This document shows positions 4,130 through 44,029 of a DNA stretch of 64,000 nucleotides, piece after piece; position 1 is the first letter of the stretch, and the number at the start of each line of letters is the position of its first letter. The DNA is from Mobula hypostoma (taxonomy: Eukaryota). The notes beneath the pieces are model-generated. The model did no database searches, had not been told where the DNA came from, and worked only from the letters and a program-made list of their open reading frames with translations. Position numbers and translations under genes: made by a program. The DNA lies in NCBI RefSeq assembly GCF_963921235.1, contig NC_086097.1, forward strand, positions 55,740,001 through 55,804,000, given 5' to 3'.

Positions 4130-5075
4130 CTCATGAGTCTCCCAATCCAATACATCATTCTGTGTAATTTCTGCTATCTCCAAAGAGATCCTCCCACCAA
4201 GCACATCTTTACCTCCTCCCCCCACCCCCACTCTCTGCTTTCTGCAGGGATCGCTCCCTCCGCAATTTCCTTATCCATTTGTCCATCCCCACTGATCTCC
4301 CTCCAGGCACTTATCCTTGCAAGTGGTCAAATTGCCACACCTGCCCATTCACCTTCTCCCTCACCTGCATTCAGGACACCACGTAGCCCTTCCAGGTGAG
4401 GCATCACTTCACCTGTGAATCTGTTGGAGTCATCTATTGCATCTGGTGCTCCCAATGCACCCTCCTCTTCATTGCTGAGACCTGTCATAAACTGGGGAAT
4501 CGTCTGTTGAGCACTTCCCCTCCATCCGCCTAAAGGAGAATTTTCCTGCGGCCAACTGTTTTAATTCCATTTCCCAATCCCATCCCGACATGTTGCTCCA
4601 CAGCTCCTCTTATGCCACAAGGAGGCCACACTCAGACTGGAGGAGCAACACTTCATATTCCTTCTGGGTAGCCTGGTGGCGTGAACATCGATTTCTCCCT
4701 CCGGTAAAAAAACTTTTTCCCTCCCCCTTCCCTCTTCTTCTATTTCCCACTCAGGTTTCTTACCTCTTCTCTCCTGCTTATCACCTCCACCTGGTGCTCC
4801 TCCTTCTTCCCTTTCTCCCAAGGTCCACTCTTCTCCTATCAGATTTCTTCCTCTCCAGCCCTATACCTTTCCCACCCACCTGGCTTCACCCATCACCTTC
4901 TAGCTGTCTTCCTTCCCCTCCCCCCACCTTTTTATTCTGTCTTTCCCTTCTTTCTCAGTCCTGAAGAAGGCTTCTTGGGCTAAAACATTGACTCTATTTA
5001 TTCATTTTTATAGATGCTGCCTGACCTCCAGCATTCTGTGTGTGTTGCTTTGGATTTCCAGCATCTGTAGAATGT
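4130..5075 (+). mobile_element. Penelope-like element 3' fragment (decayed GIY-YIG endonuclease plus pseudo-LTR)
   Basis: Translated remnants IQYIILCNFCYLQRDPPTKHIF, FQVRHHFTCESVGVIYCIWC and EATLRLEEQHFIFLLGSL; pyrimidine tract, degenerate hammerhead at 4956-4993, and the gatgctgcctgacc...ccagcatctg tail. Confidence 0.85.
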
Positions 5076-6467
5076 ATCTTATTATTAAATAATGCTATTT
5101 TGATTCTGATGCTGCCTTTTAGTGCTAAATTGTGTTTGCTCATTAAGAGATTTAAGCAATGCCTATCCACAATTGCCAGTTAAGTTTACTTGCAGGCAGA
5201 GTTTACTTTCTTGCTACATAAAGAGAGGATGTTAGAACAACACTGTCTCTGGTCCTGCTTTCATGCGAAACTATCGATGCAAAAGCCTATAATGTGTTGG
5301 TTCAACCCAGACTCAAGGCATTAATATCCTGAGATATGGAAGCCGGGCAAATTAGAGATTTTTACTTTTCAGTTCTCATAAGTGTAATTAAAGTTGGAAA
5401 AATCTAGGCTGCAAAATGTCAATTAGAGTTATGTTCTTCTGTAAAATTATCTAGATTTAGACAGAGAAAAACATAGGCTTACATTGTTATAGCCCTTTAA
5501 ATTTTCCAGTGTAAAGAGATGAAACATTTAAAATATACTTAGAACATTTCCTGCTGCTAAATCCTAGCAGATTACTTGTAGTCTTATCCAGTCAAAGTAA
5601 AAATACATTGCAAGTATTTGGATTTTAAACCTTTGGAGGACTGTCTTTTCAGAAGAGTAATCATTGGTATTAACATTTATGATTTTAACAGGGGAACTGA
5701 TCACAGCTGCATTTGAGCTTGGGGTAAGTATTACTGTATTGTTTAAAAAATGCACTCATTTAGGGCATTAGTGATGATTAATTAGGCATGGACTAATATG
5801 GATTAATATGGTTTCCAATCACAAATTTCACTTATTTTGATTCAGTAAAATATGCTAAGATTTATTTCATTTTATTAATCCAATTAAATAGAATTATGAA
5901 GAAATAGCTTTCTAGTGTATGTACAGCTTATGATGTGGACATATTTTCACAAAGCTGTAAAGAATGAAATAAATCAGGTTAATAGTTTTAATGAGTTTTA
6001 TGATTTAGATTTTGGTGCTATGGGAAACCTCCTTTATAACTCAGGGAAAAATGTACCCATGGTGGTAATGAAAAGCCTCATAATGTGGACTAAACATAAA
6101 GAAGGAGACTCCTCTTGGGACTTCTGTCTTTGTTTATAATGTGCTCCATTTGTTTTCTTCTTTACCATCAGTTAGGAATTGGGGTTTTACATATGTGTAT
6201 CATTTTTAGAGAATCCTAAAGTGTAAGCTTTTTAACCCTATTAAAAATTAGGCAACTTCATATTACATTTCCAAAGTTCATCTTCCAAAATAGCTTCATA
6301 TTATGAATCACAGTGCTTTGCAAAAAAAGCAATTTACATATATTGCTAATCATGAAAAAAATACTCCAATTGCAGCTGTAAATTTAGCTAACTCTGTTTA
6401 TTAGTTTAAATTTAAAGAAAGTAACTGTTTGCAGGTAATATGAAAACTAGGGTCTTTATTTTCTCTA

Positions 6468-6668
6468 ATACACACAAAGTGTTGGAGGAACTCAGCAGGC
6501 TAGGCAGCATCTATGGAAAAGAGTAAACAGTTGACAGTTCAGATTGTCCTGATGTAGAGTCTCGGCCCAAAACATCAACTGTTTCCTTAGTCGCTGCCTG
6601 GCCTGCTGAGTTCCTCCAGCATTTTTTGTGTGTATTACTTTGATTTCCAGCATCTGCAGATTTTCTTT
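6468..6668. mobile_element. PLE pseudo-LTR-derived hairpin element (inverted arms)
   Basis: acacacaaagtgttggaggaactcagcaggctaggcagc (6470-6508) is nearly the reverse complement of gctgcctggcctgctgagttcctccagcattttttgtgtgt (6593-6633); degenerate hammerhead between the arms. Confidence 0.8.
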
Positions 6669-10118: not shown

Positions 10119-10373
10119 TGAGTTTGAGCTGACTAAGTTTACAACTCTTTGCAGCTTACTTCAATCCTGTGCAGTAGCCCTCCTCCCCATACCAGACGGT
10201 GATGCAGTCTGTTAGCATGCTCTCCACAGTACATCTGCAAAAATTTGCAAGTGTTTTGGGTGACATGCCAAATCTCATCAAACTCCTCATGAAATATAGT
10301 TGCTGTCTTGCCTTCTTTGTAGCTGCATCAATAGATCCTCATAGATATTGATATCCAGAAACTTGAAATTACT

Positions 10374-10996
10374 AAACACGAGGAAATCTGCAGACGCTGG
10401 AATTTCAAGCAACACACATCAAAGTTGCTAGTGAACACAGCAGGCCAGGCAGCATCTCTAGGAAGAGGTACAGTCGATGTTTCGGGCCGAGACCCTTTGT
10501 CAGGACTAACTGAAAGAACAGATAGTAAGAGATTTGAGAGGGGGAGGGGGAGATCCAAAATGATAGGAGAAGACATGAGGGGGAGGGATGGAGCCAAGAG
10601 CTGGAAGGTTGATTGGCAAAAGGGATATGAGAGGATCATGGGAGATGAGGCCTAAGGAGAAAGAAAGGGGGAGGAGGGAAGCCCAGAAGATGGGCAAGGA
10701 GTATAGTGAGAGGGACGGAGGGAGGAAAAAGGAGAGAGAGAGAGAGAGAGAGAAATAATATATAAATAAATAACGGGTGGAGTACGAGGGGGAGGTGGGG
10801 CATTAACGGAAGTTTGAGAAGTCAATGTTTGTGCCATCAGGTTGGAGGCTACCCAAATGGAATATAAGGTGCTGTTCCTCCAGCCTGAGTGTGGCTTCAT
10901 CTTGACAGTAGAGGAGGCCGTGGATAGACATATCAGAATGGGAATGGGACGTGGAATTAAAATGTGTGGCCACTGGGAGGTCCTGCTTTCTCTGGC
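10374..10996 (-). mobile_element. Relatively young Penelope-like element 3' end (GIY-YIG C-terminus plus pseudo-LTR)
   Basis: ORF 10803-11006 DLPVATHFNSTSHSHSDMSIHGLLYCQDEATLRLEEQHLIFHLGSLQPDGTNIDFSNFR; pseudo-LTR nearly identical to 21327-21427. Confidence 0.9.
10471..10507 (-). ncRNA. Minimal type-I hammerhead ribozyme motif, core mutated
   Basis: Reverse complement reads agtc-CTGACAA-agggtctcggccc-GAAA-CATC-gactg; CUGANGA has become CUGACAA. Confidence 0.7.
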
Positions 10997-11669
10997 AGAC
11001 TCCCACTCACTCTTTCCATTTCTGATTCCTCTATGAGGACTGTTATTCCTCGTCTTACCCTTTCTGATGTCCACAGTCAGTTCTTTGGTCTTTCTGACAT
11101 TGAGTGCAAGGTTATTGCTGTGATCACACTACAGGTTATATGTAAAAATAAGTGACTTGCAAATGTCATGATGCTACAGCATGATATGTGTGCACCTCTC
11201 TTAAAGTAAAGAATGAAGTTAGACTCACATTCCTGGCTCTCTTGTTTTTTTTCCCCCCAATTAGTTTAATGTTTTGTACTTACATAGTATAACAAAAGTT
11301 GTTGGTATGACACTCTACATTGTAGAGTATTCCATCATACCCAAGATGTGCCTTATGTTTGAAAGGTTATTGGGTCGTCAGGAGGAAAGTACATTCATTC
11401 TGGGTACCTATCTCTGATCTACTGTTATAGCCAAAGAATTTACTGCATTTAACAGCTCCAGTTGAGTTTCTGATGAGTCATGTCCCATAAGATGTTAATG
11501 CAGAGCAATTGTTAATAGTAATACCTTTCAAGAGTTTGGTTAGGTTCTCCCTTATCAGAGATAGCCATTGACTAGTACTTTGTGCATGAATGTTCCATGC
11601 CGTTTATGAGCCTATGCCCGAATGTTGTCCAAGTCTTACTGCATGCAGGTATCAACAGCTAACTTTGCT

Positions 11670-13540: not shown

Positions 13541-15063
13541 TAGAAACATAGAAACATAGAAACATAGAAAATAGGTGCAGGATTAGGCCATTCGGCCCTT
13601 CGAGCCTGCACCGCCATTTATTATGATCATGGCTGATCATCCAACTCAGAACCCCGCCCCAGCCTTCCCTCCATACCCCCTGACCCCTGTAGCCACAAGG
13701 GCCATATCTAACTCCCTCTTAAACATAGCCAATGAACCGGCCTCAACAGTTTGCTGTGGCAGAGAATTCCACAGATTCACCACTCTCTGTGTGAAGAAGT
13801 TTTTCCTAATCTCGGTCCTAAAAGGCTTCCCCTCTATCCTCAAACTGTGACCCCTCGTTCTGGACTTCCCCAACATCGGGAACAATCTTCCTGCATCTAG
13901 CCTGTCCAATCCTTTTAGGATCTTATACGTTTCAATCAGATCCCCCCTCAATCTTCTAAATTCCAACGAGTACAAGCCCAGTTCATCCAGTCTTTCTTCA
14001 TATGAAAGTCCTGCCATCCCAGGAATCAATCTGGTGAACCTTCTTTGTACTCCCTCTATGGCAAAGATGTCTTTCCTCAGATTAGGGGACCAAAACTGCA
14101 CACAATACTCCAGGTGTGGTCTCACCAAGGCCTTGTACAACTGCAGTAGTACCTCCCTGCTCCTGTACTCGAATCCTCTCGCTATAAATGCCAGCATACC
14201 ATTTGCCTTTTTCACCGCCTGCTGTACCTGCATGCCCACTTTCAATGACTGGTGTATAATGACACCCAGGTCTCGTTGCACCTCCCCTTTTCCTAATCGG
14301 CCACCATTCAGATAATAATCTGTTTTCCTATTTTTGCCACCAAAGTGGATAATCTCACATTTATCCACATTAAATTGCATCTGCCATGAATTTGCCCACT
14401 CACCCAACCTATCCAAGTCACCCTGCATCCTCTTAGCATCCTCCTCACTGCTAACACTGCCACCCAGCTTCGTGTCATCCGCAAACTTGGAGATGCTGCA
14501 TTTAATTCCCTCATCCAAGTCATTAATATATATTGTAAACAACTGGGGTCCCAGCACTGAGCCTTGCGGTACCCCACTAGTCACCGCCTGCCATTCTGAA
14601 AAGGTCCCGTTTATTCCCACTCTTTGCTTCCTGTCTGCTAACCAATTCTCCACCCACACCAATACCTTACCCCCAATACCGTGTGCTTTAAGTTTGCACA
14701 CTAATCTCCTGTGTGGGACCTTGTCAAAAGCCTTTTGAAAATCCAAATATACCACATCCACTGGTTCTCCCCTATCCACTCTACTAGTTACATCCTCAAA
14801 AAATTCTATGAGATTTGTCAGACATGATTTTCCTTTCACAAATCCATGCTGACTTTGTCCGATCATTTCTCCGCTTTCCAAATGTGCTGTTATCACATCC
14901 TTGATAACTGACTCCAGCAGTTTCCCCACCACCGACGTTAGGCTAACCGGTCTATAATTCCCCGGTTTCTCTCTCCCTCCTTTTTTAAAAATTGGGGTTA
15001 CATTAGCCACCCTCCAATCCTCAGGAACTAGTCCAGAATCTAACGAGTTTTGAAAAATTATCA
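13541..15063 (-). mobile_element. Young 5'-truncated CR1 LINE
   Basis: (ATGTTTCT)3 tail at 13541-13567 (minus sense), short 3' UTR, uninterrupted RT ORF. Confidence 0.97.
13646..15063 (-). CDS. CR1 ORF2 reverse transcriptase domain and C-terminus (N-terminally truncated; the ORF-track start codon lies in flanking DNA)
   Basis: Motifs PGNYRPVSLTS, QHGF, YLDFQKAFDKVPH, GVPQGSVLGP, FADD, RDLGV, RPHLEYCVQFW; no stops or frameshifts over ~470 codons. Confidence 0.9.
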
Positions 15064-15589
15064 ATAAAATAAATACAATAATTGATAAATACATTTATTG
15101 ATAAAATAAATACTAAAAGTTAAAAATAGAGGAAAAGGTAGGTTCTAGCTTTTTAACCTGAAATAAACAATCCATTTGATGATAGCGTTGCTACCATTCA
15201 ATATTGACTCGAAAAGCAACACAGAATTCAAACATCAAATTGTAGCTAAAAGTTAGGGAATGCAATATTCAGCTTGCATCCATGTCTTCATTCATTTAAA
15301 TGCACGGTGTTAGATTTGGTCTAGTGGAGGCACCATTGTTGCTGACTCATGTCCTCACTAATTTAGGCTTTTACACTGGAATTGAGTGAATGCTATTTTG
15401 TTAAGAGGTCTTCATTAGATGAAGTATTAAAGCTAATGGTTTAGTTAGGGATGAGCAAGTGAGAACACAAAAGATCTCAAGATATTATCCCAAGAATAAA
15501 ACATGACACCTTTGATCAAAATTTACTTGCTGACCTTTGATGATAGGAACATTAATGCCATGCTTCCATCCAAATGCATAATGTTTTAT

Positions 15590-16095
15590 ATACATGTCCA
15601 AAGTAAATGCATTATCTAGATACATATATGTCACCATATTCAACCCCGAGATTCATTTTCTTGCAGTCATATACAGTAAATCCAAGAATCAATGAAAGAC
15701 CACAACCAACAGGATGGACAAACAACCAACATGCAAGAGACAACAAACAGTGCAAATACAAAAGAGAGAAAAAATAATACTAATAGATAAATAAGCAATA
15801 AATATTGAGAGCATGAGATGAAGAGTCCTTGAAAGTGAGTCCATTACTTGTGGGAACAGTTCAGTGATGGGCAAGTGAAGTTGAATGAAGTTATCCCCAC
15901 TGGTTCAAGAGCCTGATGGTTAAGGAGTAATAACTGTTCCTGAACCTGGTGGTGTGAGTCCTGAGGCTCCTGTACCACCTTCTTGTTGGCAGCAGGGAGA
16001 AGAGAGCGTGTCCTAGGTAGTGGGAGTCCCTGCTGATGGATGTTGCTTTCCTGCAACAGCGCTCTGTGCAGATGTGCTCAATGGAAGGGATGAAT
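15590..16095 (-). mobile_element. Rex1/Babar-like LINE 3' fragment
   Basis: Reverse complement of the family at 46045-46618 (shared 3' UTR and TTRFRNSY..TIRLL-type C-terminus). Confidence 0.8.
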
Positions 16096-19000
16096 TGGAT
16101 AAAGTCTTTAAACCTTTATAGAGCAATTATTGTGAATTAGCTGTGATTACTCTGATCAATATTTAACCTTCAGAAACAGATACCCAAACCCTTGTTATCT
16201 AAGAATATAGTTTACTTTCTCATTGGTAAGGCTAGTTCAAAAGTACAAGAGGTTGTAATGCTTCTCCTTGTGAACAAAACTATATATGGTCTAAAATGAT
16301 GATCTTTCATTTACTCTGATTCAATTGTATTTCACAAAACGCATCATGAAAAAACTATTGTATTGTAATATACAAAAAAAATCATGAATTTTCCATAAGA
16401 AAATCACTAACGATGGAAGATTAGCTAAACGTTCAGTTTTTTTGATAACATCCTATAATGTTGCTTGGCCTGATTTCTAATGTACCACACTGTCAAGGAA
16501 AATTAGTCAGTGATTTTTAAATAAATACATTTGGTTAAGTAGATCATATGCATGTACTAGATGGGATTTTCGCTAGAATGGTAAAAGACTTTTATTTTAC
16601 CTACATTTCTTTGAAGGATTTGGTCCCATTGTTCAAGAAATAACCATCCTTGTCAAGTGGTGAACAAACAGCAGTACAAATATGATTTGCTCTTTGATCC
16701 CTGCTCGTTCTGTGCCATAAATCTTAAATGCTATGGATAACAGTATTTTGAATGTCCTGCACTATCCTTGAAGAGTTGACATTTTTATATAAATGTGAAT
16801 CGCCAGAGTTTCTTTAACATGGCTTCATTTGCATTATTACTGTGGCACAAGAGGCAGATCAAAACTGATGCTGTGACATCTAATATAAAATCAAGGGCAT
16901 TCCAAGCTTAGTTATTAAAGTAAAACAAAAATAAAAAATTTGAAGAATTACTTTATGTAATGTTAAATTTTATATTATCTACTATTCTTGATTATTATAG
17001 GGTTTATTGGTTTCTAGTATCAACGTGCTGAAGCCTTTCACTAATTTCTATACACAGTGTGATATGTTAGTTAAATAACTTGATCAAATTCTATTTGCTT
17101 ATTCTGCTTTTACCAGATCTCTCTCTAATAGTTGTTTTATATCAATGTTCTGTATTTTAATTTGGGATTCGGCAGCAAGTGAAAGAGTTCAAAAGCAAAA
17201 ACTTGGCGCTCCCTCCATTTTGTTTTTATGGTTTCTATAATTTGATTTCAACCTTCTATAAATGTACTTTTGAAAAGTTAAGAATGGAACAGAAATAATA
17301 TTTTGATTAATTCATTTTGGTAATATCATAGATTGTTTGAGCTGTACTAAGTAACTATAAATGTTCACTGTTAAATTGGATTCTTGCATCATTGGAATTC
17401 ACCTTAAAATAATGATCCAATTATGTTCTAAAAGAATATTGCAATATTGCACCTTTTTGAAAGCCGCATTGTTGTTAATCCTGAGCATATCCAGTATCCA
17501 GGTTTTCTTTGCTAAAATGATCCTTTAGCTTAAACAAAAAAACAGCAGCAAGCATTCTCTACATAACTGCTCTCTTCTCAAGGTATGTTTCCTTTACATA
17601 AGCAACATGAAACAGAAAATACTTTAAAGCTTTTGAGTAAGTACAATGGTCTTTTAGTAATGTTGGCATAATATAATGACATTTGGAGTCTTTTGATTTA
17701 ATTTCAAATGTATTTATTTTTGACATCGGAAAGATTTAAATATGAGCATGTCGGAATACAAATAATGTAAATAATTTATGAACAACATGCCTCTAGGGAA
17801 CATGGCAGTTCAAGTGTCAGATTCATGCTGCTGACAATAGAGACTGTGACTGGTATACAAAGTGAACCCTGTCTATGGTAATGGACTGAACATTGACCTA
17901 TTGATTGAGTGGTACAAGGCATTGTACAATATCAGCTGGGTCTTTCAAATTTAATTTGCTGCGTGACATGAATTAACCTTAGGAACCTTTCACTTGTACT
18001 TCTAGCTCTGTCAGTTTAGTTCTAGGTAATGTTCAATCATGTTAGTTTGTTGGTCAACATGACAAATTACTTTAAGAGTAGGCATCTCTCCCAGGTTTAA
18101 CTAACTAGAGCTAACGGTAAATAGAATTTAACTTACCACAGTTTCATCCATGAAGTGTGCTGGTAATTACAAAACTGTCTTTTCTTTGTCTTACAGCTAC
18201 AGAATTATGTTTTTAAGTAAATATTTGTAAAGTAAAAAGTAAAAGAATTTATTTGTAAAAATGTTGTATTACGTTTACATTTAATAAAGTTTAGTGTATC
18301 TTAAGGAGCTTACAAAGATGATATTTAGATCATCTGTACTCCAGTAGATAAAGTACTATTAACAGATTATTTTATGTAATTGAAGGGACTGCACACTCAA
18401 AAGACTCAATTGAAACGTCAGCATAGAAATGCATTTTTAAAAATTACTGTTTTGTATGTTTCAAAAAATATAGCTACATAAGACATCAAAGAAAGAAATA
18501 AAATAATTGTCAATTCAATTGCACAACACTTTAGCATGTTATGCCATGCTTAGGAAGACCTGAGATCAAATACCAGCCTCCTTGGTCAACATTGCTGTGC
18601 CACAGATGGCTGGTACAGATTATATTAAAGGAGATTGTATTTAAGTCATTGATTGGTTGAACTTGGCTATCTAGTCAACAGGAGAGAAATGTATAAACCT
18701 GCTTTAATGAAGGTGCCATTGAATTATGTAATGGAGATGTCCTGAATCATTTTCTCTTTTATGTGCCCTGAAAAAATACAAGGAAATGTAATAATTAAAA
18801 GCACTTCATCATAAAAAATTGATAGCCTTTTAAGAAAATAATGAAGTATATGAAATTAATTAGGAAACAATGCAGAAAATCAAAGTGAATCTTGTGTTTC
18901 TCGTGAATTTTAATTTATCATCTTCTGCAAAGAAAATTAAGAGTTTTCATTGATAATTTATAACAGGAAAATGATAATATAAAACAAATAGGATTAATAA

Positions 19001-21326
19001 TTTTTTTAAAGTTCTCACTGATTTTTCTATTTCCTAGACTAATATATATTTTGCTAAAATAATCTCACCTATATTATGACAAAATTTCAGGAATATTTTA
19101 AATCCACGTGTTTCAAATTTATTCTAAAAATAAAGAAATTCATCTGTATTTCTTATGATAAAAGTAGTCATATATTTATAAATGTTACTTTAGTCCACGT
19201 GTTTTGTCTGGAAAGAAAATGGATATGAAATTTAATCAATTTCACCTTTATGAATGCTCACATATAAATTGTTTTTGAGTGTTAAATATATTGGAGTGAA
19301 AGTAATTGTATTTAAAATGTGCATTCAGAACATCTATTTTATCATTCCGGCCTCCAGACAAGTCACATTGATAACTTGTTTAATATGTTGAAAGTACTGT
19401 TGTAATAGGATGGTCCTCCTTGAATTTACTTCCCACCTTTTGAGGTAAATCTTAAATATTACTAATTAATTTAGGCCATGCATTTTTATGAATAAACTGA
19501 CATTTCTGTTGAAATAGAAACGACTAAAAGAGCTGACTACTGGACACAGAATAAAATTAGGTATCTTAGATCATTGAATCATATTAAATTGTCATATTGA
19601 GTTGTGGTGATATATGTAAGAGAAAAGGCCAACAGATACTAAGTTAAACAAATTTTCTTCCTTTATAGTAAACTTACAGAAAACTTACTTCACAAATTTT
19701 CATCCATTTTCAATCTCAATAAATAATAAGTGTTACAAAGGAATGCATACCCATTTGACCAGATATGAGTGTTTTTAAAAAATCTGTATTGAAATAAGAC
19801 GTCACTTTTTATTTAGAACCCCTTCTTATTTTACCTGATATATAAGGCAGTGTGCACTGAAATATTATTATGGAATCGAGCATTTTAAAGCAGCAACATT
19901 TTATTCAAGAATTTGAAATATACATAACTGGCATATTTAATGTTGTTTGATCTGCCATAGTCAGTTTAGCAACAGTGAAGAGATATTCCTTAATAAAATG
20001 GACAACTCTTATATGACAACTGCATTTTTCATTAGTTCAAGAAAATGTTAATCATGCAATTCCAAGTCTAATCCTTTTGATATCGTCAGGTACCTCCTGT
20101 TCATGGGTTAATTGCTTTAAAAGCGGAGGCAATATTCTGAACGGTGGGCTGTGTCACCTTTTCACAGCTGTTACCATTGAGTGACAACTAAATCCCATGT
20201 GTAAAATGTGGAAAAGCTCAGTCTCCAATCGAGAGAAAATTTATGTAAACTGCAATCCCTTCAGTATGTGCGGAAGTCATAGACTTTCTTGATTTACCCT
20301 GCTTTTCCCAGAAAGCTCTATTGTTTGGCTTCCTAAGTCTCATCAACCCTTTGTAGCAGAATATCACAGCAGCAGCAGATAGCTTAAAAAATATAAATGC
20401 TATCATAGTGGTGATTAATAGCAGTGCTTATGAGTCAAGTCAGATAACACTGCAGCTCTCCACTCAATTTCAGATACTGCTAATGGAATCTGTCTTCTCC
20501 AATTGTAATATGAGAAGGGCTAATTTGCTATGGAGCTTGGAGCTGTCACCAGCAGGGGATTGTGGGGTCAGATGGGAGCTGCCAGGTTTTTGCCCTGCAG
20601 CTTGTATCTCTAGCTTTGAATAGAGCAGCCCCCTGCCTGCTAGTTAGCTGATAGGCCGCTATGGGGTTTATGCCACCTCATACAATAGGAAAGGGTTGTG
20701 CAGACTGACTTTTGTAATTGTGAAGCTGGCTCATATTTCGAGAGCTACTGTGCAGCATAATTTCTAATAACTGGTTTTAACAAATGTCAGATTATTAAAA
20801 GTTTTCTCAATTACAAAAACTCATAAAACATTTGAATTGATAAATCGGTCCCTTGTTGAGTTTCTGCCACTGGAAATAGAGCTGTTTTTCATGTGTGGTA
20901 TTATAAATTCACTTCAAAATTTGAATTGCTTTTAGTTTTCTCTGGTTTCAGGGAAGAAAATAATGCTGCATTTATTTTGTAATTCAGACACTTGAGAATC
21001 CAGTGGTGCCATGCACAAGTCATTTTTAACTTTTTGAGGACTAGGTTGCTCGAACTCCATGACGGAAAGAAATCAGCATTCTCAATGGTTCTGAGAATAA
21101 GGTGATTCAATGACAGGCTAATAATACAGGTGGCAGGGCACAGCACCTGCCTCCTAAAAGGATTGTTGTAAGCTCAAGTCCCAGGGTAATTGTCACTCGA
21201 GCCTTCCTGCCATTGTTGGCTTGCTGATTCTTTGCTCCACTCTTTGATACAGCACAACATAGGAGTTCCAATTTGTTTGTCTTCATATAAAATATAGGCT
21301 TTTAACAAAGTGCCTAAAGATCAGGT

Positions 21327-21427
21327 TAGTCCTGACGAAGGGTCTCGGCCTGAAACGTCGACTGCACCTCTTCCTAGAGATGCTGCCTGGCCTGCTGCGT
21401 TCACCAGCAACTTTTATGTGTGTTGCT
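21327..21427 (+). mobile_element. Solo ~100-bp PLE pseudo-LTR insertion with a 12-bp flanking duplication
   Basis: TAAAGATCAGGT at 21315-21326 and 21428-21439; insert matches the reverse complement of ~10407-10508. Confidence 0.9.
21328..21363 (+). ncRNA. Minimal type-I hammerhead ribozyme motif with intact catalytic core
   Basis: agtc (stem I)-CTGACGA-agg gtctcgg cct (stem II)-GAAA-CG-TC-gact (stem I'); predicted GUC cleavage after 21359. Confidence 0.8.
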
Positions 21428-21589
21428 TAAAGATCAGGTATTAAGCTTGAATCAAAATCTTGGTTGATTTTCTTACCTCTTGAGGTTTGAACGTTAATGG
21501 ATCTCTCTTTGCTGATTTGAAATTTATCAGTAAAAGCAACTTGCACTTAAATAAATCTCTCTCAGTGGAAAAAATATTATAGGGCATGG

Positions 21590-21850
21590 GCGTGCCAGTT
21601 GGCACTGCCACCAAACAGCTCTAGAAGTTTGGGTTTGAGTTTGTGCTTCTTACCCTGACTATGTGGGTTCCTGTTTCTTCCTATGTCTCAGAGATTAGTT
21701 GGTAGGTTGGATAGTTACTCCGTGTAGCTAAGTGCTGAAAGAATCAAAGTGGATTTGATGGGCATGTGAAAGGAAGACTAAATTGTAGGACCAGAGGGAA
21801 ATAGGAAGAAGGAGGATTGGGACTGCTGGACAGAGTGGCTTCCTCCAGAG
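21590..21850 (+). mobile_element. Decayed tRNA-derived V-SINE-like element
   Basis: gagtttgtgcttctt..tgactatgtgggtt core similar to copies at 35210, 50858 and 58020. Confidence 0.5.
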
Positions 21851-21859
21851 TTTAAAAAA

Positions 21860-22500
21860 TTAGACCAAAAAGTGAATACTGAGCCAAATATTAGCAAGCC
21901 GTTCAGTAAAGAGATGCCTTTCAGCAAAGAGATGGTTTTGAATGTGGAATTTAGTATAGGACATGGATGGGGAGGCAGATAACTGAAAGGTAGGATTTCC
22001 ATTGTGGAAAACATGAATGTTTGAAACCCTGTCATGGAGGATAGTCGAAGGCAAGTTGTGAATGATGCAAGCACCAAGAAATAGAAATGGCGGGGGGGGG
22101 CATTAAAGGGTAGGAAGAGAACATAAAGATCCAGAAGGGTGAAGCCATGGAGTGATTTACAGAAGAAGATATTAATCGTAAAGCCCTGGGAAATTGGGAA
22201 CACAGGCAATGTTGAGGATTTGGTGTGAATTTCACTTTGCCAGCAAAAACCTGAAAAGCGAGAGTGAAATAGAAGTGTGGATTGGAGTAGTCAAATCTGG
22301 AGTTTGGTTTGAGCAAATATGGAACAAGGCCAGAGTGGGGATGCGTGAAACTGTTTTTGATGTTGTTGCATCAATGAAAGTGAGCTCCCTTTATGATGGA
22401 GAGCATGTACGGGTCAGAGCTCAGCTCAGGCAGGAGGGATTATGGTTCAGCCAGAGACAGTGGCTGGAGAGGAGTCAAAATTAGAGCATGTGTGTAGAGT
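21860..22500 (-). mobile_element. Decayed L2-like LINE ORF2 fragment
   Basis: Broken minus-strand frames with LINE-like peptides (e.g. FHNGNPTFQLSASPS, LKPNSRFDYSNPHF); assigned from memory. Confidence 0.45.
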
Positions 22501-22708
22501 TTATTTTGAAGGCTGAAAGGATAATCAGGCAGACACGTGGAAGTATAATATTTTGTTACTTAAGCATGGAGTGGAGGGGTATGCAAAGCATCTTAATGTT
22601 CCAAGTTACATAGTTCTCTGACAAGAGAGATGGTGTTGTAAAAAGGAAGCTGTGGCAATATACGTTTAAGCGACAATCACAACTGTATGAAGAGATGATA
22701 TGTTAGAC

Positions 22709-22788
22709 CATGAGTTCCCAATCTTTTTTACGCCATGGACTAATATCATTAAGCAAAGGGTCTGAGCACCTCAGACTGGGAACCCCTG
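22709..22788. mobile_element. 80-bp hAT-type MITE
   Basis: TIRs catgagttccca / tgggaacccctg; 8-bp TSD tgttagac (22701-22708) / tgttagaa (22789-22796). Confidence 0.8.
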
Positions 22789-24224
22789 TGTTAGAAGGAT
22801 CATCAAATCAGGTTTTATGAGCCGTGCTAAAGAACAGAAAGGGGGCAATCACAGTCCAGGACGTTAACAGTCTGGGGAAAATTAGATGAACAAAACTAGG
22901 CATATCACAAGTGCAAAACTACTAGGTCAATAATGGGAGATTTAATTTACCACTGTGTTAACCGGAATGTAATTTAATGTACAGACAACACAGAACTCCT
23001 AAAATGCATTCAGGACATCTATTTTTAGCCAATATTTTGCAAACCATAAAGAGATGGGAAATTTAGAATTTAACTTTAAGGAATGATTTTGGCCCTATGG
23101 AGAGAATATTAGTGGGAGAGTTCTTTTGTGGTAGTGAGCACTTTTTTTGTGGTTGTTCAGTTAAGTTTAGCAAGGGAAAGAGGAAAATAGAAAAAAAATA
23201 AATGATTCCAAGTTTGAAGAAGGTCAGGTGCTAAGAGTACCTTCCTATTTTTCACTTCACTAATCATATGATGTCCTTGTTATTGCCAATGACCCCATCA
23301 AGTACAAAGGAACACGGAACTGATGCTACTGAAATTTTCCTCATGCTTGTTCCATGATCAAGCAGCTTTATTTCAATATTCCGCTGCCTTAACTTAGAGC
23401 TCTAGTTATGTCGTATTACCATGGTAACAACCTGTTCTTCTATTGAGGCCTCGGATGGTCTTAGAATGGAACTTATTGTTTTTTACCTCACTATAACTAG
23501 ATGGTTAGCCTTGTTCCTTCTAATTTATTATGCTTCTGCAACCTTGAATCCTAGCAAGGTAAACTAACTTCCAATTCATCACTGCTGCAGTGGGGTACTG
23601 TTCCTTATGACATGTTGAACTAGTTCACCCTGTGATGGATGAGTCCTGGAGATTCCTTCCTTCAGTTAAATAATTATCAGTATCTTTGATTATATTAACA
23701 TCCCAGAGAACTTCATGCATCATTAACCATACTTGTATGTGGCATCTTCCAACTTTTGATTGAAACTGACGACCAAAGCCATTCCACAAGAGTGGAATGG
23801 AACACTCTCTTGCCTGGAAGAATGTAGCTCCAAAAGCTCTCAAGAAGCACAACACCATCCAGAAAACAATCCATGCCATAAATCCCTCACATTACAAGCC
23901 CAGAGTTGAATTGTACACTAACTGCATAATGAACTGCAGTAGTTTGTCAAGGTTATGCCACCACCATCTCCCAAACGTGTGACCTACAAGTTGTGGGTGC
24001 TCTATTGTGCCAGAAAGACAAATGCTTTCAGTGTTAATGGGAATTAATACGTTTTCTGTTCCAAGTTGTATATTATTCTGACTGAGAAATACTGTATATT
24101 GCTATTCCTTCACTGGGCTTAAACCTTAGAACTCCCCCCTCCCCAGCAGTATTGGGTAGTACCCTCACCAGGTAGACAGCAGTGGTTCAGCAGATAGATC
24201 ACCAGAATCCTCTCGAGGACATAG

Positions 24225-24975
24225 TGGATACCGAGGAGTACTATCAAAGCTTGCAGCAGGATCTGGACTACCTGAAAAAATGGGCTAAAAAGTAGAATAT
24301 GGAACTTAATGCAGGCAAGTGTGAGGTGTTGTACGTTGGAAGGCCAAACCAGGGCAGGACTTATGCATCCAATGATAGGGCACTGAAGAGTGTGATAGAA
24401 CAGAGTGATCTAGGAATACAGATCCATAATTCCTTGGAAGCGGTGTCAAAAGTAGGTAGGGTCTAAAAGAGAGTTTTCAGTCCTCATAAATCAAAGAATT
24501 GAGTACAGAAGTTGGGATGTTATGTTTAAGTTGTATAAGATATTGGTAAGACACAATTTGGAGTATTTTCTGCAGTCCTGACTGCCTAACTACAGGAAAG
24601 ATATCACCAAGATTGAATAAGTACAGACAAAATTTAGAAGGATGTTGTCAGGACTTGATGACTGATTTATAGGAAAAGGTTGAATAGGTTAGGACCTTAT
24701 TCCTTGGAGCATGGAAGAAAAAGGGGAGATTTGATAATGGTATGCAAATTTAAAAGGGGTTGAGACAGGGTAAATGCAAACAGGCTTTTCCCACTAAGGT
24801 TGGGTGAGACTAGAACTAGAGGCCATAGATTAAGAGTGGAAGGTGGAATATTTAATGGGAAACTGAAGAGGAACGTCTTCACTCAAAGGGTGAGACGAGT
24901 TGCAGCAGAAGTGGTGGATGGGGTTTTGATTTCAACATTTAAGAGAAATTTGGATAAGTACATGGATGGGAGGTA
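24225..24975 (+). mobile_element. Decayed CR1 LINE 3' fragment
   Basis: Frameshifted peptides LQQDLD, KCEVLYVG, LYKILVRHNLEY, ETRTRGHRL. Confidence 0.85.
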
Positions 24976-26666
24976 AGAGGTCAGAGTGGGAATGGAGGTA
25001 GTGAACATAGAACATGGAACAGTACAGGCCATTACAGACCCTTTACCCCATGATGTTGTACTGACCTTTAACCTACTGCATATTCCTCCATTTTTCTTTC
25101 ATCCATGTGCCTTTCTAGGTAAGAGTCTCTTAAATATTCCCAGTGTACCTGCCTCTACCACTACCCCCCATTGTATATTCCACACACTTACTTCTCTCTG
25201 TGGAAAAGAAACCTATCTTTGACATGGCCTTATAATTTCTTCCGACCACCTGAAAATTATGCCCTCTTGTATCAGCCATTTCTGTCCTGGGTAAAAAATG
25301 CTGGTGGTCCACTCTGGTAATGCCTCTTATCATCTTATGCACCTCTAATAAGGCAACTCTCATCCTCCTTTGCTCAGAAGAGAAAAGCACTATTTGTTCA
25401 ACCTTTCCTTATAAAACATAGTCTTTAGTCCAGGTAAATCTCCTCTGTACCCTTTCTAAATGTTTTGAATCTTTCCTATAATGAAGCAACCAGAACTGAC
25501 CACGATATTCCGAGCGTGATCTAACCAGAGTTTTATAGAGCTGCAACATTACCTTGTGGCTTTTGAATCAAACTTTGACTAATGAAGGCCAATACACAAT
25601 ACACCTTCTTAACTACCCTATCAACTTATGCAGCAACTTTGAGGGATATATAAACGTGGATCCCAAGATCCCTCTGTTCCCCCACACTGCTAAGAATCTG
25701 GTCATTAACCTTACACTCTGCCTTCAAGTTTGACCTTCCAAAGTGTGTGATTCCACTCTTTTTCAGATTGAATTCCATCTGCCACCTCTCACCCTTGGTC
25801 TGCATCCAGTCACTGTCCCATTGTAACTATAATTACCTTCTACACTATCCACAACACCATCAATCTTTGTGTCATCTGCAAACTTACCAACCATTTCCTC
25901 ATCCAACTCATTTATAAAAAAAATCACAAAGAGCAGGAGTCCCAGAACAGGTCCCTGCAGGACACAACTATTCACAGAATGTGCTTCATCTGCTACCACC
26001 CTCTACCTTCTGTGGGCAAGCCAGTTCTAAATCCACACAGCCTCGTTTCCCTGCATCCCATGCCTCCTAACGTATTGAATGAGCCGACCATGAGGAACCT
26101 TGCTGAACGCTTTACTAAAATGCATATACACCATCCACTGCCCTACCTTCATCAATTTCTTTTGTCATTACTTTGAAGAATTCAATCAGACTTGCGAGGC
26201 ACGACCTGCCCCTCACTAAGCCTCGTTGACAATCCCTAATCAGCTATGCTTCTCAAAATGCTTGAAAATCATGTCTCTAAGAATCGCCTCCAATAATTTG
26301 CCCACGACTAATGCAAGACTCACTGATCTATAATTCCCAGGATTATCCCTATTACCTTTCTTGAACAAAGGAATAACATTTGCCATCCTCCAATCTTCTG
26401 GTACTACTCCTGAGGCCAGTGAAAACACAAAGATCATTGCTAAAGGCACAGCAATCTCTTCTCTTGCTTCCCATAGTAACCCAAGGTATATCATACCTGA
26501 CCCTGGGGAATTTTCTGTCCCAGTGTTCTTTCAAAATTTCCAGCACACTTTCTTTCTTAATGTAAACATGCTCCAACGTATTAGCCTGTACTATGCTGTC
26601 ATGGTTTCTCTTGCAGATGAATACTGAAGCAAGCATTCATTAAGGACCCCCCTTCCTCTTGTAACT

Positions 26667-27128
26667 CCATAGCCTCTTCTTCTGTCATGATGAGGCCACT
26701 CTCAGGGTGTAAGTATCCTCCTACCTGATGGCATGAACATTGATTTCTCCTCTTTTTTTCTTTTCCCCTCCCCTTCCCTCTTCTTCATTTCCCCACTCTG
26801 CCCTCTTATCTCTTCTTCTCACCTGTTTCTCACCTCCCCCTGGTGCCCGTCCTTCTTCCCTTTCTCCCATGGTCCACTCTCCTCTCCTATCAGATTCCTT
26901 CTTCTCCAGGCTGTTACCTCACCCACCTGGCTTCACCTATCACCTTCTAGCTTGTCCTCCTTCCCTTCCCCCCACCTTTTTTATTCTGACGTCTTCCCCC
27001 TTTCTGTCCAGTCCTGATGAAGGGTCTCGGCCTGAAACATCCACTGTTTATTCATCCTGACCTGCTGAATTCCTCCAGCATTTTCTATGCGTTACTCTGA
27101 TTTCCAGCATCTGCAGAATCTCTTGTGT
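26667..27128 (+). mobile_element. PLE 3' fragment/pseudo-LTR inserted in the CR1
   Basis: Same family as 4600-5075 (DEATLR..GMNIDFS, pyrimidine tract, hammerhead, ccagcatctgcag end). Confidence 0.85.
27009..27046 (+). ncRNA. Minimal hammerhead motif; core boxes intact, stem I/III substitutions
   Basis: cagtc-CTGATGA-agggtctcggcct-GAAA-CATC-cactg. Confidence 0.7.
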
Positions 27129-34378: not shown

Positions 34379-34436
34379 ATGAGAGGGACAAGCTAGTGTA
34401 GAATGAGAGGGAAAGCATAATAGAATGAATGGAATA

Positions 34437-34781
34437 CGAGGGGTGATTGATAAGTTCGTGGCCTACGGTAGAAGGAGATGAGTTATACCGCTCTCCTTAC
34501 ATGCACATGCAGTTCAACTCATTAAGTGAAAATGCAGAAAGTTTTGAAGTTTCTCCTCATCTCCTTCTACCTTAGGCCACGAACTTATCAGTCACCCCTG
34601 CTGTGGACCACTTTCTGGAGGTCCAAGACGCCAACTTCTACAAAGAAGGGATCTGTATGCTCCACGACCGCTGGACTAAGTGTGTAAATGTAGGAGGGGA
34701 CTATGTTAAAAAATAAATGTGATAGGTTTTCTAAAATTGACTTTTTCTACCTTAGGCCACAAACTTATCAATCACCCTTCG
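34437..34781 (+). mobile_element. Non-autonomous mariner element
   Basis: TIRs cgaggggtgattgataagttcgtggcctacggtagaa / ttctaccttaggccacaaacttatcaatcacccttcg with TA on both sides; remnant FYKEGICMLHDRWTKCVNVGGDYVKK* is a typical mariner transposase C-terminus. Confidence 0.9.
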
Positions 34782-35209
34782 TAATATGTGTTCCGAACTT
34801 TGAGCTATTATTCTGTTTCCCTGGGCTTTATCACAGAAATATCCACAAGTTATGCTGAATGTTCATGTGGAAATTCCATATACTGTAGATATTACAGCAC
34901 AAAAGCATAAGGATTGGATTTGAAAACTTCACGTTTTTTTTAGAGATACAGCACAGTAACAGGGCCCTGTGGCCCAACAAACCCGTATCCCTTACAGACA
35001 GTGGTGGTTGCTTGTGCTGTAATAGTGTTACACTAACTGCTACGCTACCGTACCACTGTGATTGACGTCCATTCTGAATTGACAGAGGAACAGCAAATGC
35101 TCAGTTACATTACAGTAAGTCTCCACACCTTCTTAGTCAACAGATGGGAAGACGAGGATGAAAATTGCAACCGGGACTAATTATTAACAGCGGCATAATG
35201 AGATTGCTG

Positions 35210-35680: not shown

Positions 35681-36954
35681 CTTTGACCTGCACTAAATGT
35701 TGACTTAGGAGGGCAGATTTTAATTGTCCAAAAGCAGTCCATATAGGGAAACTATTTTTAGAGAAGTTACTTTGTGGTATGCTTTGTATTGTATCCTCAA
35801 CCAATATATAGCTATTTCATCACCAGATGAGTACAAAGACTCAGCTGATTCCGTGAGATGAAGCAGAGCAAGCAGTCAATGAGCAAAGTAACATTTGAGA
35901 AGCTGTGACCAAAGTTAATTAGGTTCCATCTAGGAGTAGAGAAAGATGAGGTTATGGATTAAACAACATTAGTAAAGCAACACTGTGTATTAGACTGGGA
36001 TTAAAGGGAACCAGAGTAGAGAAGTAGCTGGTAAAACTGCCTCAGAAAAGTGTAATATTTGAATAGGAGATGGAAATGCTAAACATTAAATATATTCATG
36101 TAAGAAAGGATGAGCAGTAGGGGTGAGATTATGGTTCACTGTTACAATAAAGCTACAAAAATCTGCTGAACTATTATTTAGAAATCACAGTGGTTCAATA
36201 TTTGGCTCACCAGGCATTACTTGTAGTCCCTTTAAACTTGCTGCACCCCATTTCCCATTCCACGTTTAACTTTACTGAGCTCACAACTAACATCGTCCTT
36301 TAAAGATTTTCCAGGGCACATTCCCATGCCCCATTTAAACTCCTGGGGCCCCAGTCACGGTCTCCATTTAAACTCCTGGGGCCTCTGTTACTTTGCTGAA
36401 TTTAAACTCATAGGGCCCCAGGAGTTTACACTGGACAGATTACTATTCTATGTGTAATTTCTAAAAGCTACTGAATTAAAAGTGTGTTTAGATGTTTATA
36501 GAAATAATATCCAATAGTCTGCAAAAACTATCAGCTCGGTTCTGCTAAAGTCCTAATTGTGTTGGATTAACAGAGTTTTTACATTACTCCAATTTTTGGC
36601 ATGACTGTAGTGATGAACCTTTTTTTAATATCACTGATGTCTACAGGAGGAGTGGACAATCCCATTTTTTAAATGAAATTTGAATTTAATGGCCAGTGAT
36701 CCTACTAGAAATAGGTGAAGAACGTTTAATACTATATTTTGAATTTTGACATTATCTCATCTCTTCAAAAGTCTGCCTCTTATCATCTTGAAATATGATC
36801 CAAGATATTCTTAAAACTGAACAGTGCAGTTGAACATGCTTATTGCAAGTGCCATGAAGAAATTTGCCCATGGGACATAACTGCTTTCACCATTTAATTG
36901 AATTTTGTGATCAGTTTAAAGCAATGAATTCAATAGTAATGCTGAGCAAGAGAA

Positions 36955-36967
36955 TGCCACCTAGTGC
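36955..36967 (-). promoter_or_regulatory. CTCF-like motif
   Basis: Reverse complement GCACTAGGTGGCA vs consensus CCACYAGRKGGCR (one mismatch). Confidence 0.4.
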
Positions 36968-39900
36968 CTAAGGGAGGGCCTAACGACACAAGACTTGTGT
37001 CTACCGACACAATATATAAAATTGAAGTTAGTATTGGCTTCTGGATCCATACTTCCCATGCAATAAAATTTTCACTAATTTTGAAATTGTTCTACAATTC
37101 AGGGAAACCAGTTGCTGAACTCTAATGACATGACCAGGCAGACAACTTGGTACCATTAACTGCTCCTAAAATGAAACAAAGAAAATGACTGCAAATAAAA
37201 GGACTAAACCTTCTCATTAATGCAAGAAGAATGAACCAAACTCTCACCATCCCCCACGTGGCTGTTGATCTCAGCTTGCTTTACATGGGTTTAACACCAA
37301 CATTGGAGCTTTGTGCTTTCTCATAGAACATGTGTCAAAGCCACGAATGAAGCACTGTTCTGAAATCAAAGCATTTGTTAAATTGCACAAAACAGTGGTA
37401 GAAACTACTGCCAGGAACACCAACACAGTATGTTAATTTAGATGAATTTCACTTAAAGTGTATAAGATTAACTTCCTTACGGAAGTTAATTGGCAAACTG
37501 CGTCACACTGGTCAAACTTGAGGAAGAATTGTTACACTTTCCCAATGTTTACTTCCCTGCTTTGGGTATTTTAATTTATGTAGATGGAAAATGGGATCAT
37601 CAGTTGCCAACTTGTATTCTTTCCTCGCCTCACTTTCTTCCAAATACTGTGCCTGGTGACGGGAAAGAATCAGGCAGAAAAAAAATGGGAAGAGCCCTCT
37701 CAATATCTGGGGGCAACCCCCAATTTCCTTGGACCAGAAATTTAGAGTTTTGTAGTACACCCAGTTTGTATGCTGGAGTAAATGGACTTGACAGAATTTG
37801 ATAAGATGAATCACTTTTTCATTAGTGTAACTGCAGAGTGTAAGCTGGAGCAACCTTTGCTGATGATTTTGAAGGGTTGTTACAAGCAAAGGGGAGGGAG
37901 GTTATTACTTCAAGCTAAGCTACTTGCTATGTGAGGATAAGGTTACAAGGGTAACTAATTTCCTAGCCACGACTTGAAAGCTCTCATGTAAAATGGTGGG
38001 TGTAATAGTTTCCTTTTTAAATGAAATGTCACTCTGCTGTGGAGGTGCCAACTATGAGGGTGGGGCTAACAGACAAAATAAAGGCAGTTCCACGTAACTG
38101 CGACATCACTACAGAGCGAACGAGGAATGATTTTTCTCCTGTGTAGGGAAGTAATGAATTTGCAGCTTTGTTCCTTGTTAATGTTTTCAGGACCCAAACC
38201 AATATCATTCTCCTCTGAGTTTTCAGGAAGTGATTGCACAAAGTACTCATTCCCCCCTTTTCACGGAACTCTTTCATAAAAGAGAAGTTGGAGGACAATT
38301 GGGGCCAGTAAGGTTTTCCACATAGTAACAAAAGCTTGGCTTCAGAAAGGAGGTGCCCTGGGCTTTAAGCAGCTTCTTGTGCATTTTTAGGGAACATCAG
38401 TGCAGGAAATGAAATGTTTCCACAGGAGGAATTAGACTAAGGTTACACATAGACCTTGGACAATAATCGCCTACAAAAAGTATGCATTTCAGGAACAACA
38501 TTTATAATAGGTGGCGCTGAACTGCCCCAGCTGACAGGAGAAAACAACTTTGGTAAAGAAAAAGAATCATGTGTTCTTTAAAGAAAAACAAAATCATAGT
38601 TCTTTTGTTAACCAAAGTTTGTGAACAGTAAAAGGGGTGTATTACCAGAAGCAACTCACAATGAGAGTTTTTCTTGTTTGTACATCTCAGTCTAGGTCAC
38701 TCTTCTTGTAGCTCCTTGAACCAGGCCTATGGCCCATTCCTCTTAAGAAAGAAAATTGAGGCAGGAAGATGATGCTGATTTTGAATCCTATGACAAAAGA
38801 GGATTTTACCCAGAGTAATTAGCAAAGGCTTTTGAAACACAACCATGGTCGGCCAGTGATCAAATGTTCAGTCCCTCTGGACAAATAGTCTTGAACTCCT
38901 ACCAGTATCTTGGATTCGTACAGAATAAGAAAAAAAATTGATGGCTTACAAGTGATGGGCTTTAATGTATAGGATGATAGCTCTATGGCTGGAAATGAAC
39001 TGTGCATGATGAAGTGGAATTCTTTCCCAGTAATGTTTGTAGTGATTTGTGAAATGCTAATGAGACAAGGACCCTATCAATTATGTCCCTTGACCTTGGG
39101 AAAACTGCCTCACAATGAAAGTTACTGTACCTGTTTATTCATTGGACAGACATAGTCCCCAATTTTAAAGCCCACCTACTGAAAACCAGTGAAAACAGGG
39201 ACAATCAACTTCAACCTCCATTCCCTTCAGACAATTAAAATCACAAACACATCCGGCTACCTCACAGATAAATTCAATAAAAGATCTAATTGGTTCACGT
39301 GAAGCCCAGTCTAACTTTAATTAGGTGGATCAAGTCCTCCCACTGAAATCTTGAAGCAATGTGTAATAGCTCTCTGAATCGATGCTGTCCTTTCTGCATT
39401 ATCATCCAAAATCAAAATTAGCCCTTCAGTGTAGTAGCAAATGCTTTGCTTTAAGAAGCATTCCGAAGAAAATGAGGACTGGTTTGTGTTTCTGTGTGAG
39501 TAGTGCAATCCATGATGTTGGTAAAAAAAATACCTTGGAAACTGAGACTTTAATTTAAACCAATCTCTAACATATTTAATAGTAGTAAAGTGAGTTGGAT
39601 TTAATTACTATCACAGCAATTTTAGTTTCTGATGTTAAATCCAAAGGATAAAGATAACAAAAGAGCTGGATCTATTATATATTGCTCTGTGCCATTTTAA
39701 ATTTATACTTTTTTTGTCTATTTTTTTCCCAGTACAGTTGGAAAATGTTTACAAAGGTAAGGAAGTTAATCATGTGAATTTTAAGTGAAATTCATCTCAA
39801 TTAACATACTGTGTTGGTGTCCTTGGCAGTGGTTTCTGCAGTTTAACAAATGCTTTAATTCAGATCAGTACTTCATTCGTCCCTTTGACATATGTTCTCT

Positions 39901-42900: not shown

Positions 42901-44029
42901 TTACAGGATACACATAAATATTGTGAACAGCAAATCAATCTTCATCTATCATTTACATTTTGATATTTATATTTAAAATGTTTGTGATTATTACTCTTGA
43001 AGCTCCTCACAATTATGTAGAAGAATAAAATTCAAACACCACTTATAAAACAATGAGTATTTTAATTTTTCTTTAAACACCTAACCTAAATTCTCCTTGG
43101 ATTTTAGCTTCTGACAATTGAGTAACCCACTAATATTCAGTGTCAAAGGTGGCAAATGAACAATGCCTACTTGTTTGAGATATCAAAGGGTAAAGGAAAA
43201 ACAGCATTCTAAACAGTTGTGAGAAGAAGCAACATAACTATCAAAAAATATTTTCAACATAAAACTCAAAAGGTGGTGAATAAATGAGACAAAATCTATT
43301 TGACTGCTACTTGAATTTAAGAATGTCCGTTTACATAAATTAAGTAACATTAATTTACATAATACATTCAGAAAGCCCTGAAATGTTTTCCAGCCAGCTA
43401 GTATCTCTGCAGTGTGTGACAAGACAGAGCCTGAGCAGTTCTTGTCAGTGGCCATTTCCATGCATACATTGAACAGCAGTCATAGCTTATGCGTCAGCAA
43501 TGAGAATTTGGTCCTATTCTCCCTCTTGTGGGCCGTGATCTAGTTGCAGATTTGTCTCCCCTGCAGATCTTTGCAGAATGGTTTATTCAGAACAGATGAA
43601 ATACACTAGATCTGTATAATTATATGGTGCATCATTGTTTAATGACAATCTATTTTTAAAAACAGAGTGGATTGCTTGCAGCAGGACAGAAATTGAACTT
43701 CAGCCAATGTGCCATGCAACATGGGCAGAACGTTATCTTCTGTGGTTCTCTTTAAAGTTCTGCTACATCTGTCAAGGGCCTTCATTTGGCCTGTTAACTG
43801 AATTTTAGATTTGATTGTGAATTTGAATAGAATGTTAACTACTTTTACATATCTTGAGAGGGTCTTGTAATATTTATCTTTTGGTCATTGGCAACATACA
43901 CGAAAAGGCTTAATACAGTGCCTCAATAGGTAATGGAGGCACGAGATTTAAGAAATCTTTAGATGAAGACTTGAAGCACCATGCCAGAGGAAGCTTTGAA
44001 CCGAGTGTTGGAAAATAGAATTAGTATTC

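Follow-up and report, generated by a model that had tools for sequence, protein, structure and literature searches.

The window, a 64,000-nucleotide stretch of the Mobula hypostoma genome, contains a 101-nt insert (21327-21427) flanked by 12-bp direct repeats, TAAAGATCAGGT, at 21315-21326 and 21428-21439; a 12-mer would arise at such a junction by chance with a probability of about 5e-6. Its features are as follows:

21315..21326, + strand: target-site duplication, left copy, 12 bp, whose final GT also matches the element (5′-junction microhomology)
21327..21427, + strand: pLTR stub of a Penelope-like element, 101 nt, tail-less and 5′-truncated, element positions -25 to +75
21327..21364, + strand: predicted minimal type I hammerhead, assigned from sequence and folding, with the layout given in PMC4209133
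21365..21427, + strand: pLTR sequence 3′ of the ribozyme, ending in the tail-less 3′ end class (+60 to +83)
21428..21439, + strand: target-site duplication, right copy, whose first T also matches the element

Element coordinates count the G of GAAA (21352) as 0, with stem I from -24 and the predicted cut between +7 and +8. The 3′ part of the insert (21365-21427) lacks a tail of about 35 nt that is present in other copies.

The 12-bp duplication that the first-pass annotation had described is borne out both by the two repeats and by an empty site in a relative, as its proposed check for an empty allele in a sister species had envisaged. The contig of this relative (flank ~94% identical; short side 67 letters) joins 21314 to 21428 and retains a single copy of the repeat. 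Since the 113 nt that it skips correspond to the insert plus one repeat, the event was an insertion with target-site duplication. In a closer relative (~98%), a contig begins at 21404, within the insert, and continues across the right flank, which suggests that this relative carries the insertion, judging from sequence with only 24 letters on the insert side as against a required 31. The insertion is, as had been proposed, fairly recent; it has no substitutions relative to a longer copy of the same family (L026).

The description of the insertion as solo holds locally, but the window has at least four further copies related to the insert. Nor does it lie at the edge of a transposon-poor island, as had been thought, but inside a repeat-poor stretch (16091-24216), in which nothing else matches the repeats contained in 0.95 Mb of sampled loci. 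The other repeats recognized in the window are:

4300-5073, + strand: older longer copy of a related subfamily, including the broken end of a GIY-YIG frame
6466-6660: older doublet from a related Penelope subfamily, arranged head to head, with arms 69% identical and the ribozyme decayed
10370..11020, - strand (ends approximate): longer copy of the insert's family, 93% over 101 nt, with the tail and the end of the endonuclease frame
13649-15094, - strand: LINE-type reverse transcriptase (RT) with a 482-aa open frame, apparently a young copy
26724-27127, + strand: older longer copy of a related subfamily
34435-34783: element of ~350 bp with 39-bp terminal inverted repeats (92%), which we take to resemble a mariner-type MITE
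51669-53461: C/A-rich minisatellite with periods of 29, 70 and 146, probably non-coding, with all three + frames open for hundreds of codons

A second stretch, at ~36000-44000, has almost no match to the sampled repeats, and both this and 16091-24216 are possibly constrained non-coding DNA. The segments 37223-37480 and 39757-40002 form an inverted pair (82%).

Every core nucleotide of the hammerhead is present (C3-A9 at 21332-21338 and GAAA at 21352-21355), along with the palindrome ACGU at 21355-21358 and a predicted cut after 21359. Stem I comprises 21327-21331/21360-21364. On the basis of folding and copy variation, stem II is formed by 21340-21343/21348-21351 (GGGU/GCCU, loop CUCG) after an unpaired A at 21339. 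Position 21351 is T in 31/39 copies and C in 8/39, and as either base still pairs with G, though not with A, we shifted the stem one base inward. Thus, the claim of an intact minimal hammerhead stands as regards the core but is amended in stem II, which lies one base further in with A 21339 left unpaired. This reading (an unpaired A, then GGGU/GCCY) matches consensus features in PMC4209133. A search with covariance models, which had been suggested as a check, yielded no hammerhead model at E≤5 in an Rfam scan of 18000-25000, a result uninformative for minimal forms. The folding z-scores of the region are not significant (-0.86, 0.34 and -0.65). In the isolated core, GACG is predicted to pair with CGUC (p 0.98), tying up the catalytic bases, and stems I and II are predicted to form at only ~0.12 in 250 nt of context. 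According to PMC4209133, single minimal hammerheads showed no cleavage. The lone ribozyme at 21327-21364 is, by these models, probably inactive here.

That the core is intact in a copy so young and free of mutations does not point to selection at this locus. The stem changes noted among copies are one-sided only (G-C/G-U at 10.1/11.1). Across four relatives, the similarity between subfamilies breaks near 21328 and 21364, which correspond to the borders of the ribozyme, albeit with loose ends; as far as sequence comparison goes, this hints at selection in active elements.

The insert belongs to an abundant family. A 34-mer derived from it has 31,800 exact matches in the 3.48-Gb genome, and a sister variant of the 34-mer has a further 17,273. 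A BLAST-type search of the genome with all 101 nt returned nothing, which the 34-mer count shows to be an artefact of common-word filtering. Over its 101 nt, the insert matches the corresponding part of L026 without a difference, and five other longer copies, one of them ~1.1 kb in length, are each a single nt away. Among 90 copies sampled from the first matches, the similarity extends upstream by anything from 1 nt to more than 1.8 kb, and short and long copies have the same four variant types in common. One long copy (L051) contains frames for RVT_1 and GIY-YIG (each with a Pfam E of 0.007, short of the curated cut-offs; frames broken), in which YIDD and GVIYCVCCSRCGLLYIGET are readable, together with the CCHH motif of the endonuclease, a CxxC between GIY and YIG, and a CX4CxxC linker, CKRNKCYTC, between RT and EN, which conforms to the Neptune-clade motif CX2-5CxxC. 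PMC8557442 ascribes CCHH and CX2-5CxxC to the Neptune and Nematis clades, with the linker common to both. On these motifs, we place the source as a Neptune-type EN+ Penelope-like element.

In five copies (L158, L160, L164, L168 and L170), the ORF start comes after the ribozyme and the tail, and a junction-proximal 30-mer has 212 matches. As this sequence is thus also found ahead of the ORF start in some copies, we identify it as the pLTR. The first open ATG of the long frame lies ~150 nt downstream of the ribozyme. In L158 and at 21380-21427 of the window, a short frame, in phase with the main ORF, begins at an ATG lying 28 nt past GAAA and is closed by a single TGA located at the tail-less end site. 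The initial assignment to the Penelope-type minimal hammerheads is thus upheld by long copies that carry RT and GIY-YIG frames and a pLTR before the ORF. The other suggestion, that of a discrete non-autonomous unit, fails, as the ends of copies scatter, variants are common to short and long copies, and the insert forms part of a longer copy. From sequence comparison, we conclude that the insert is a truncated end of an autonomous Penelope-like family rather than a separate lineage. The literature already records pLTRs with minimal hammerheads, truncated solo copies in the thousands, partners in inverted orientation and tails on one side.

The ends of copies were studied in arms sampled in the first 14 Mb of one contig, with an intact 34-mer required and both arms of some insertions included; the window copy, the reference L051 and L244 (a duplicate of L243) were excluded before the arms were counted. 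In 159 sampled arms, the 3′ ends are bimodal, falling at ~+60 to +83 and at +95 to +111, i.e., ~35 nt apart. The additional 35-nt 3′ segment is the optional tail known for these elements (PMC8557442 and PMC3846280). The family features this tail along with the inverted 5′-truncated partner and the target-site duplication. Where both outer ends of a head-to-head insertion could be seen (63 distinct cases), 62 combine one tailed and one tail-less arm, and 43 of the 63 have target-site duplications of 13-15 bp. Arms differ less within doublets (0.044 and 0.011 per nt) than between them (0.063 and 0.019, respectively), to which we give no weight because gene conversion could yield the same pattern. 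We found no published count of this one-plus-one pairing, or of the 5′-end pile-up described below, in a search that did not extend to Repbase and most subscription papers. In several loci (L257/L258, L260, L267, L274, L276 and L277), there are permuted partial tandems, in which the pLTR and 80 nt-1.4 kb of the ORF start are followed by a jump back to the same pLTR position (with three units in L257/L258), which suggests end-to-end template jumps.

At the other end, 48 of 158 sampled arms terminate at -30 to -15, the 5′ edge of the ribozyme, where 2.6 are expected; the density of ends rises from ~0.001 per nt upstream of -60 to 0.021 per nt in this zone. That the insert starts at stem I is, consequently, not a matter of chance, as the first-pass annotation had sensed, but an instance of a family-wide hot spot. 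The hot zone is broad, spanning -45 to -15 rather than a single base. Most of the zone ends (40/48) have an inverted arm or a duplication at their boundary, and 8/48 have neither. About two thirds of the zone-ending arms sit in palindromes, where microhomology in stem I can shift or create junctions. Genome-wide counts of patterns with four forced mismatches give 2,303/52,995 ends at the start of stem I; at the cleavage site they give 251/49,558, as against 285 at a control 6 nt downstream, for which there is no separate normalisation. When ends joined to flanks were checked in 30 loci each, 14 were recovered for stem I (11 without 3 of another subfamily), two for the cut and two for the control. 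Hence, neither the genome-wide pattern counts nor the 30-locus flank check reveals a 5′-end peak at the cleavage site.

The median end of the short arms is -22 for the tailed and the tail-less kind alike, which implies that position on the RNA, not length, sets the 5′ end and rules out length-limited synthesis as its cause. A spliced-exon origin of the 5′ end was likewise rejected, as there is no common upstream sequence in the 24 solo stubs or the 11 ORF-start loci listed. In copies with the ORF start, two successive passes end at most 10 nt apart in 9/10 direct cases (judged by eye, with two neighbouring loci taken as one; L273 is the one non-match in ten). Such matched ends are also found at -58, -95, -122 and -132. 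In L001-L090 and L181-L250, we observed a pyrimidine tract, a branch-point-like CTCAC/CTAAC and a CAG that ends two bases before stem I; the branch-point-like CTCAC or CTAAC lies upstream of stem I in at least 53/80 long copies. An Inr-like TCAGT lies near stem I.

We consider it likely that the insert is a 5′-truncated, tail-less pLTR end, which was internally primed on uncut RNA and ran off near stem I. The protein of the element would have cut the target site with a 12-base stagger, and reverse transcription would have been primed inside the uncut element RNA, ~75 nt downstream of the hammerhead (at +76). RT would then have run off the 5′ end of the RNA near stem I, at -25 to -27, and the junction would have been sealed through the GT microhomology with the end of the duplication. 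Normal events would involve one priming per strand, one at each of the two sites; the window copy may represent a one-armed event, in which the second arm was never completed and the lone ribozyme is inactive baggage. The hot zone would mark where the template RNA physically ends on its 5′ side, perhaps with transcription starting at the Inr-like TCAGT. In copies with the ORF start, RT seems to have traversed the pLTR twice, and the two-pass ends would then indicate where the individual template molecules physically ended on their 5′ side, in most cases near stem I.

These steps parallel biochemical results on Poseidon of Anolis carolinensis (Frangieh et al. 2024, PMC11167929), which describe internal priming at two tail-bounding sites, cutting and extension of both strands and uncleaved RNA as the template; the lizard ribozyme cleaves only with the protein, and cleavage is unnecessary for priming. 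The ray family resembles Poseidon in the two internal priming sites that define the tail, in the presumed both-strand extension on an uncleaved RNA template and in a hammerhead at the pLTR-ORF junction. It differs from Poseidon in possessing the CX2-5CxxC linker, which Poseidon lacks, and in a first open ATG ~150 nt past the ribozyme rather than within it. We further propose, with confidence about evenly poised between this and its negation, that the family records the Penelope cycle in vivo: a protein dimer would prime each strand of a 13-15-base staggered cut, once per internal site, on a short uncut pLTR-ORF RNA starting at stem I, with the hammerhead marking the start of the template without cutting and stubs such as this one being one-armed run-off products.

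The main alternative is that the same element was copied from a longer RNA, on which RT stalled or switched templates on account of the ribozyme fold, a bound protein or the splice-acceptor-like pyrimidine tract and CAG upstream of stem I, stalling near this tract being the foremost version. Long copies do carry the tract with the CAG two bases before stem I, the Penelope intron of D. virilis ends at helix I (PMC4209133), and the breadth of the hot zone would also suit such a process. Nevertheless, we deem it unlikely: the ends gather 5′ of the stems, beyond where RT would already have crossed them, the short copies have no common upstream exon, and the two-pass ends match at arbitrary upstream positions as well.

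As a lesser alternative, the stub might be what is left of a head-to-head doublet that subsequently lost its tailed arm by deletion via microhomology. Doublets are the commonest short form (31/48 zone arms), and there is 2-nt microhomology at the 5′ junction; however, the duplication is intact and directly adjoins the stub, the insert has no substitutions, and there are further solo stubs flanked by clean duplications, in some of which (L006, L016 and L125) a second arm was aborted after a few bases. Such a later loss strikes us as improbable.

More doubtful still is a discrete non-autonomous ribozyme mini-element, SINE-like or a retrozyme monomer, with a master copy of its own. Solo tail-less stubs starting in the -30 to -15 zone make up 10/158 sampled arms, or a few thousand genome-wide by rough scaling, and pLTR-derived retrozymes are described in bioRxiv 10.64898/2026.07.22.740005. 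These non-LTR retrozymes are akin to the stub in being non-coding, in their type I hammerhead, in their derivation from a pLTR and in occurring as dispersed monomers; they differ in being built of tandem units that each have a ribozyme. The locus is a single stub with no tandem array, and cleavage does not set its ends. Moreover, the ends of the ten solo stubs are scattered over -30 to -17 and +67 to +77, the four variant types are common to short and long copies with none private to the former, and the search for copies with the same two ends, advocated in the first-pass annotation, returned only one of the 158 sampled arms that agrees within 2 nt at both. That annotation had also regarded random copy ends as evidence against a discrete unit: they are in fact non-random, with the stem I zone and the two 3′ classes, but form no fixed pair.

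Least plausible of all is the idea that the ribozyme acts as a co-opted cleavage site on a host transcript: although its core is intact and it sits within a repeat-poor 8-kb stretch, the insertion is absent in the ~94% relative, its zero divergence is due to youth, the predicted GACG/CGUC pairing would lock the core of the monomer with stems I and II rarely formed, and the working cleavage site once envisaged in + strand transcripts finds no host exon nearby, with 0/70 frames (≥38 aa) matching Pfam in 16000-24500, where short or non-coding exons could escape. No RNA record was listed for the locus, which weighs neither for nor against transcription.

Placed among known systems, the family has the hallmarks of the PLE minimal type I hammerheads (Cervera and de la Pena 2014, PMC4209133), namely the core, the unpaired base between A9 and 10.1, G at 10.1, the palindromic 15.2/16.2, a short helix I and thousands of dispersed single copies from truncated elements (~4,000 in coelacanth and 9,000 in Xenopus). 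In contrast to the forms described there, helix II has 4 pairs and is shorter than in the Schistosoma forms, most ray copies have U rather than C at 11.1, the copy number is higher, and the ribozyme is known here from sequence. With the EN+ PLE insertion units (PMC8557442 and PMC3846280), it has in common the 5′ truncation, the inverted partner, the one-sided 30-40-bp tail, the duplications, the microhomology joints and the solo pLTRs; as distinct from the accounts in those texts, the pairing is here counted (62/63 doublets tailed plus tail-less), the 5′ ends are piled up at stem I, and the window stub has no inverted partner. The supplements of PMC4209133 and bioRxiv 2026.07.22.740005 may list the ray family.

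The locus itself is ordinary, one young dead stub among tens of thousands of shortened Penelope-type ends, and is usable as a presence/absence marker between relatives. The end statistics of the family are a modest lead. PMC8557442 describes what the hammerhead does in Penelope-like elements as unclear; here, tens of thousands of young copies display a strong footprint at stem I and no cleavage footprint. The pattern of ends makes the template RNA's 5′ end directly testable, and it offers genome-scale support for the priming at two sites and on both strands that was observed in vitro with a single lizard element.
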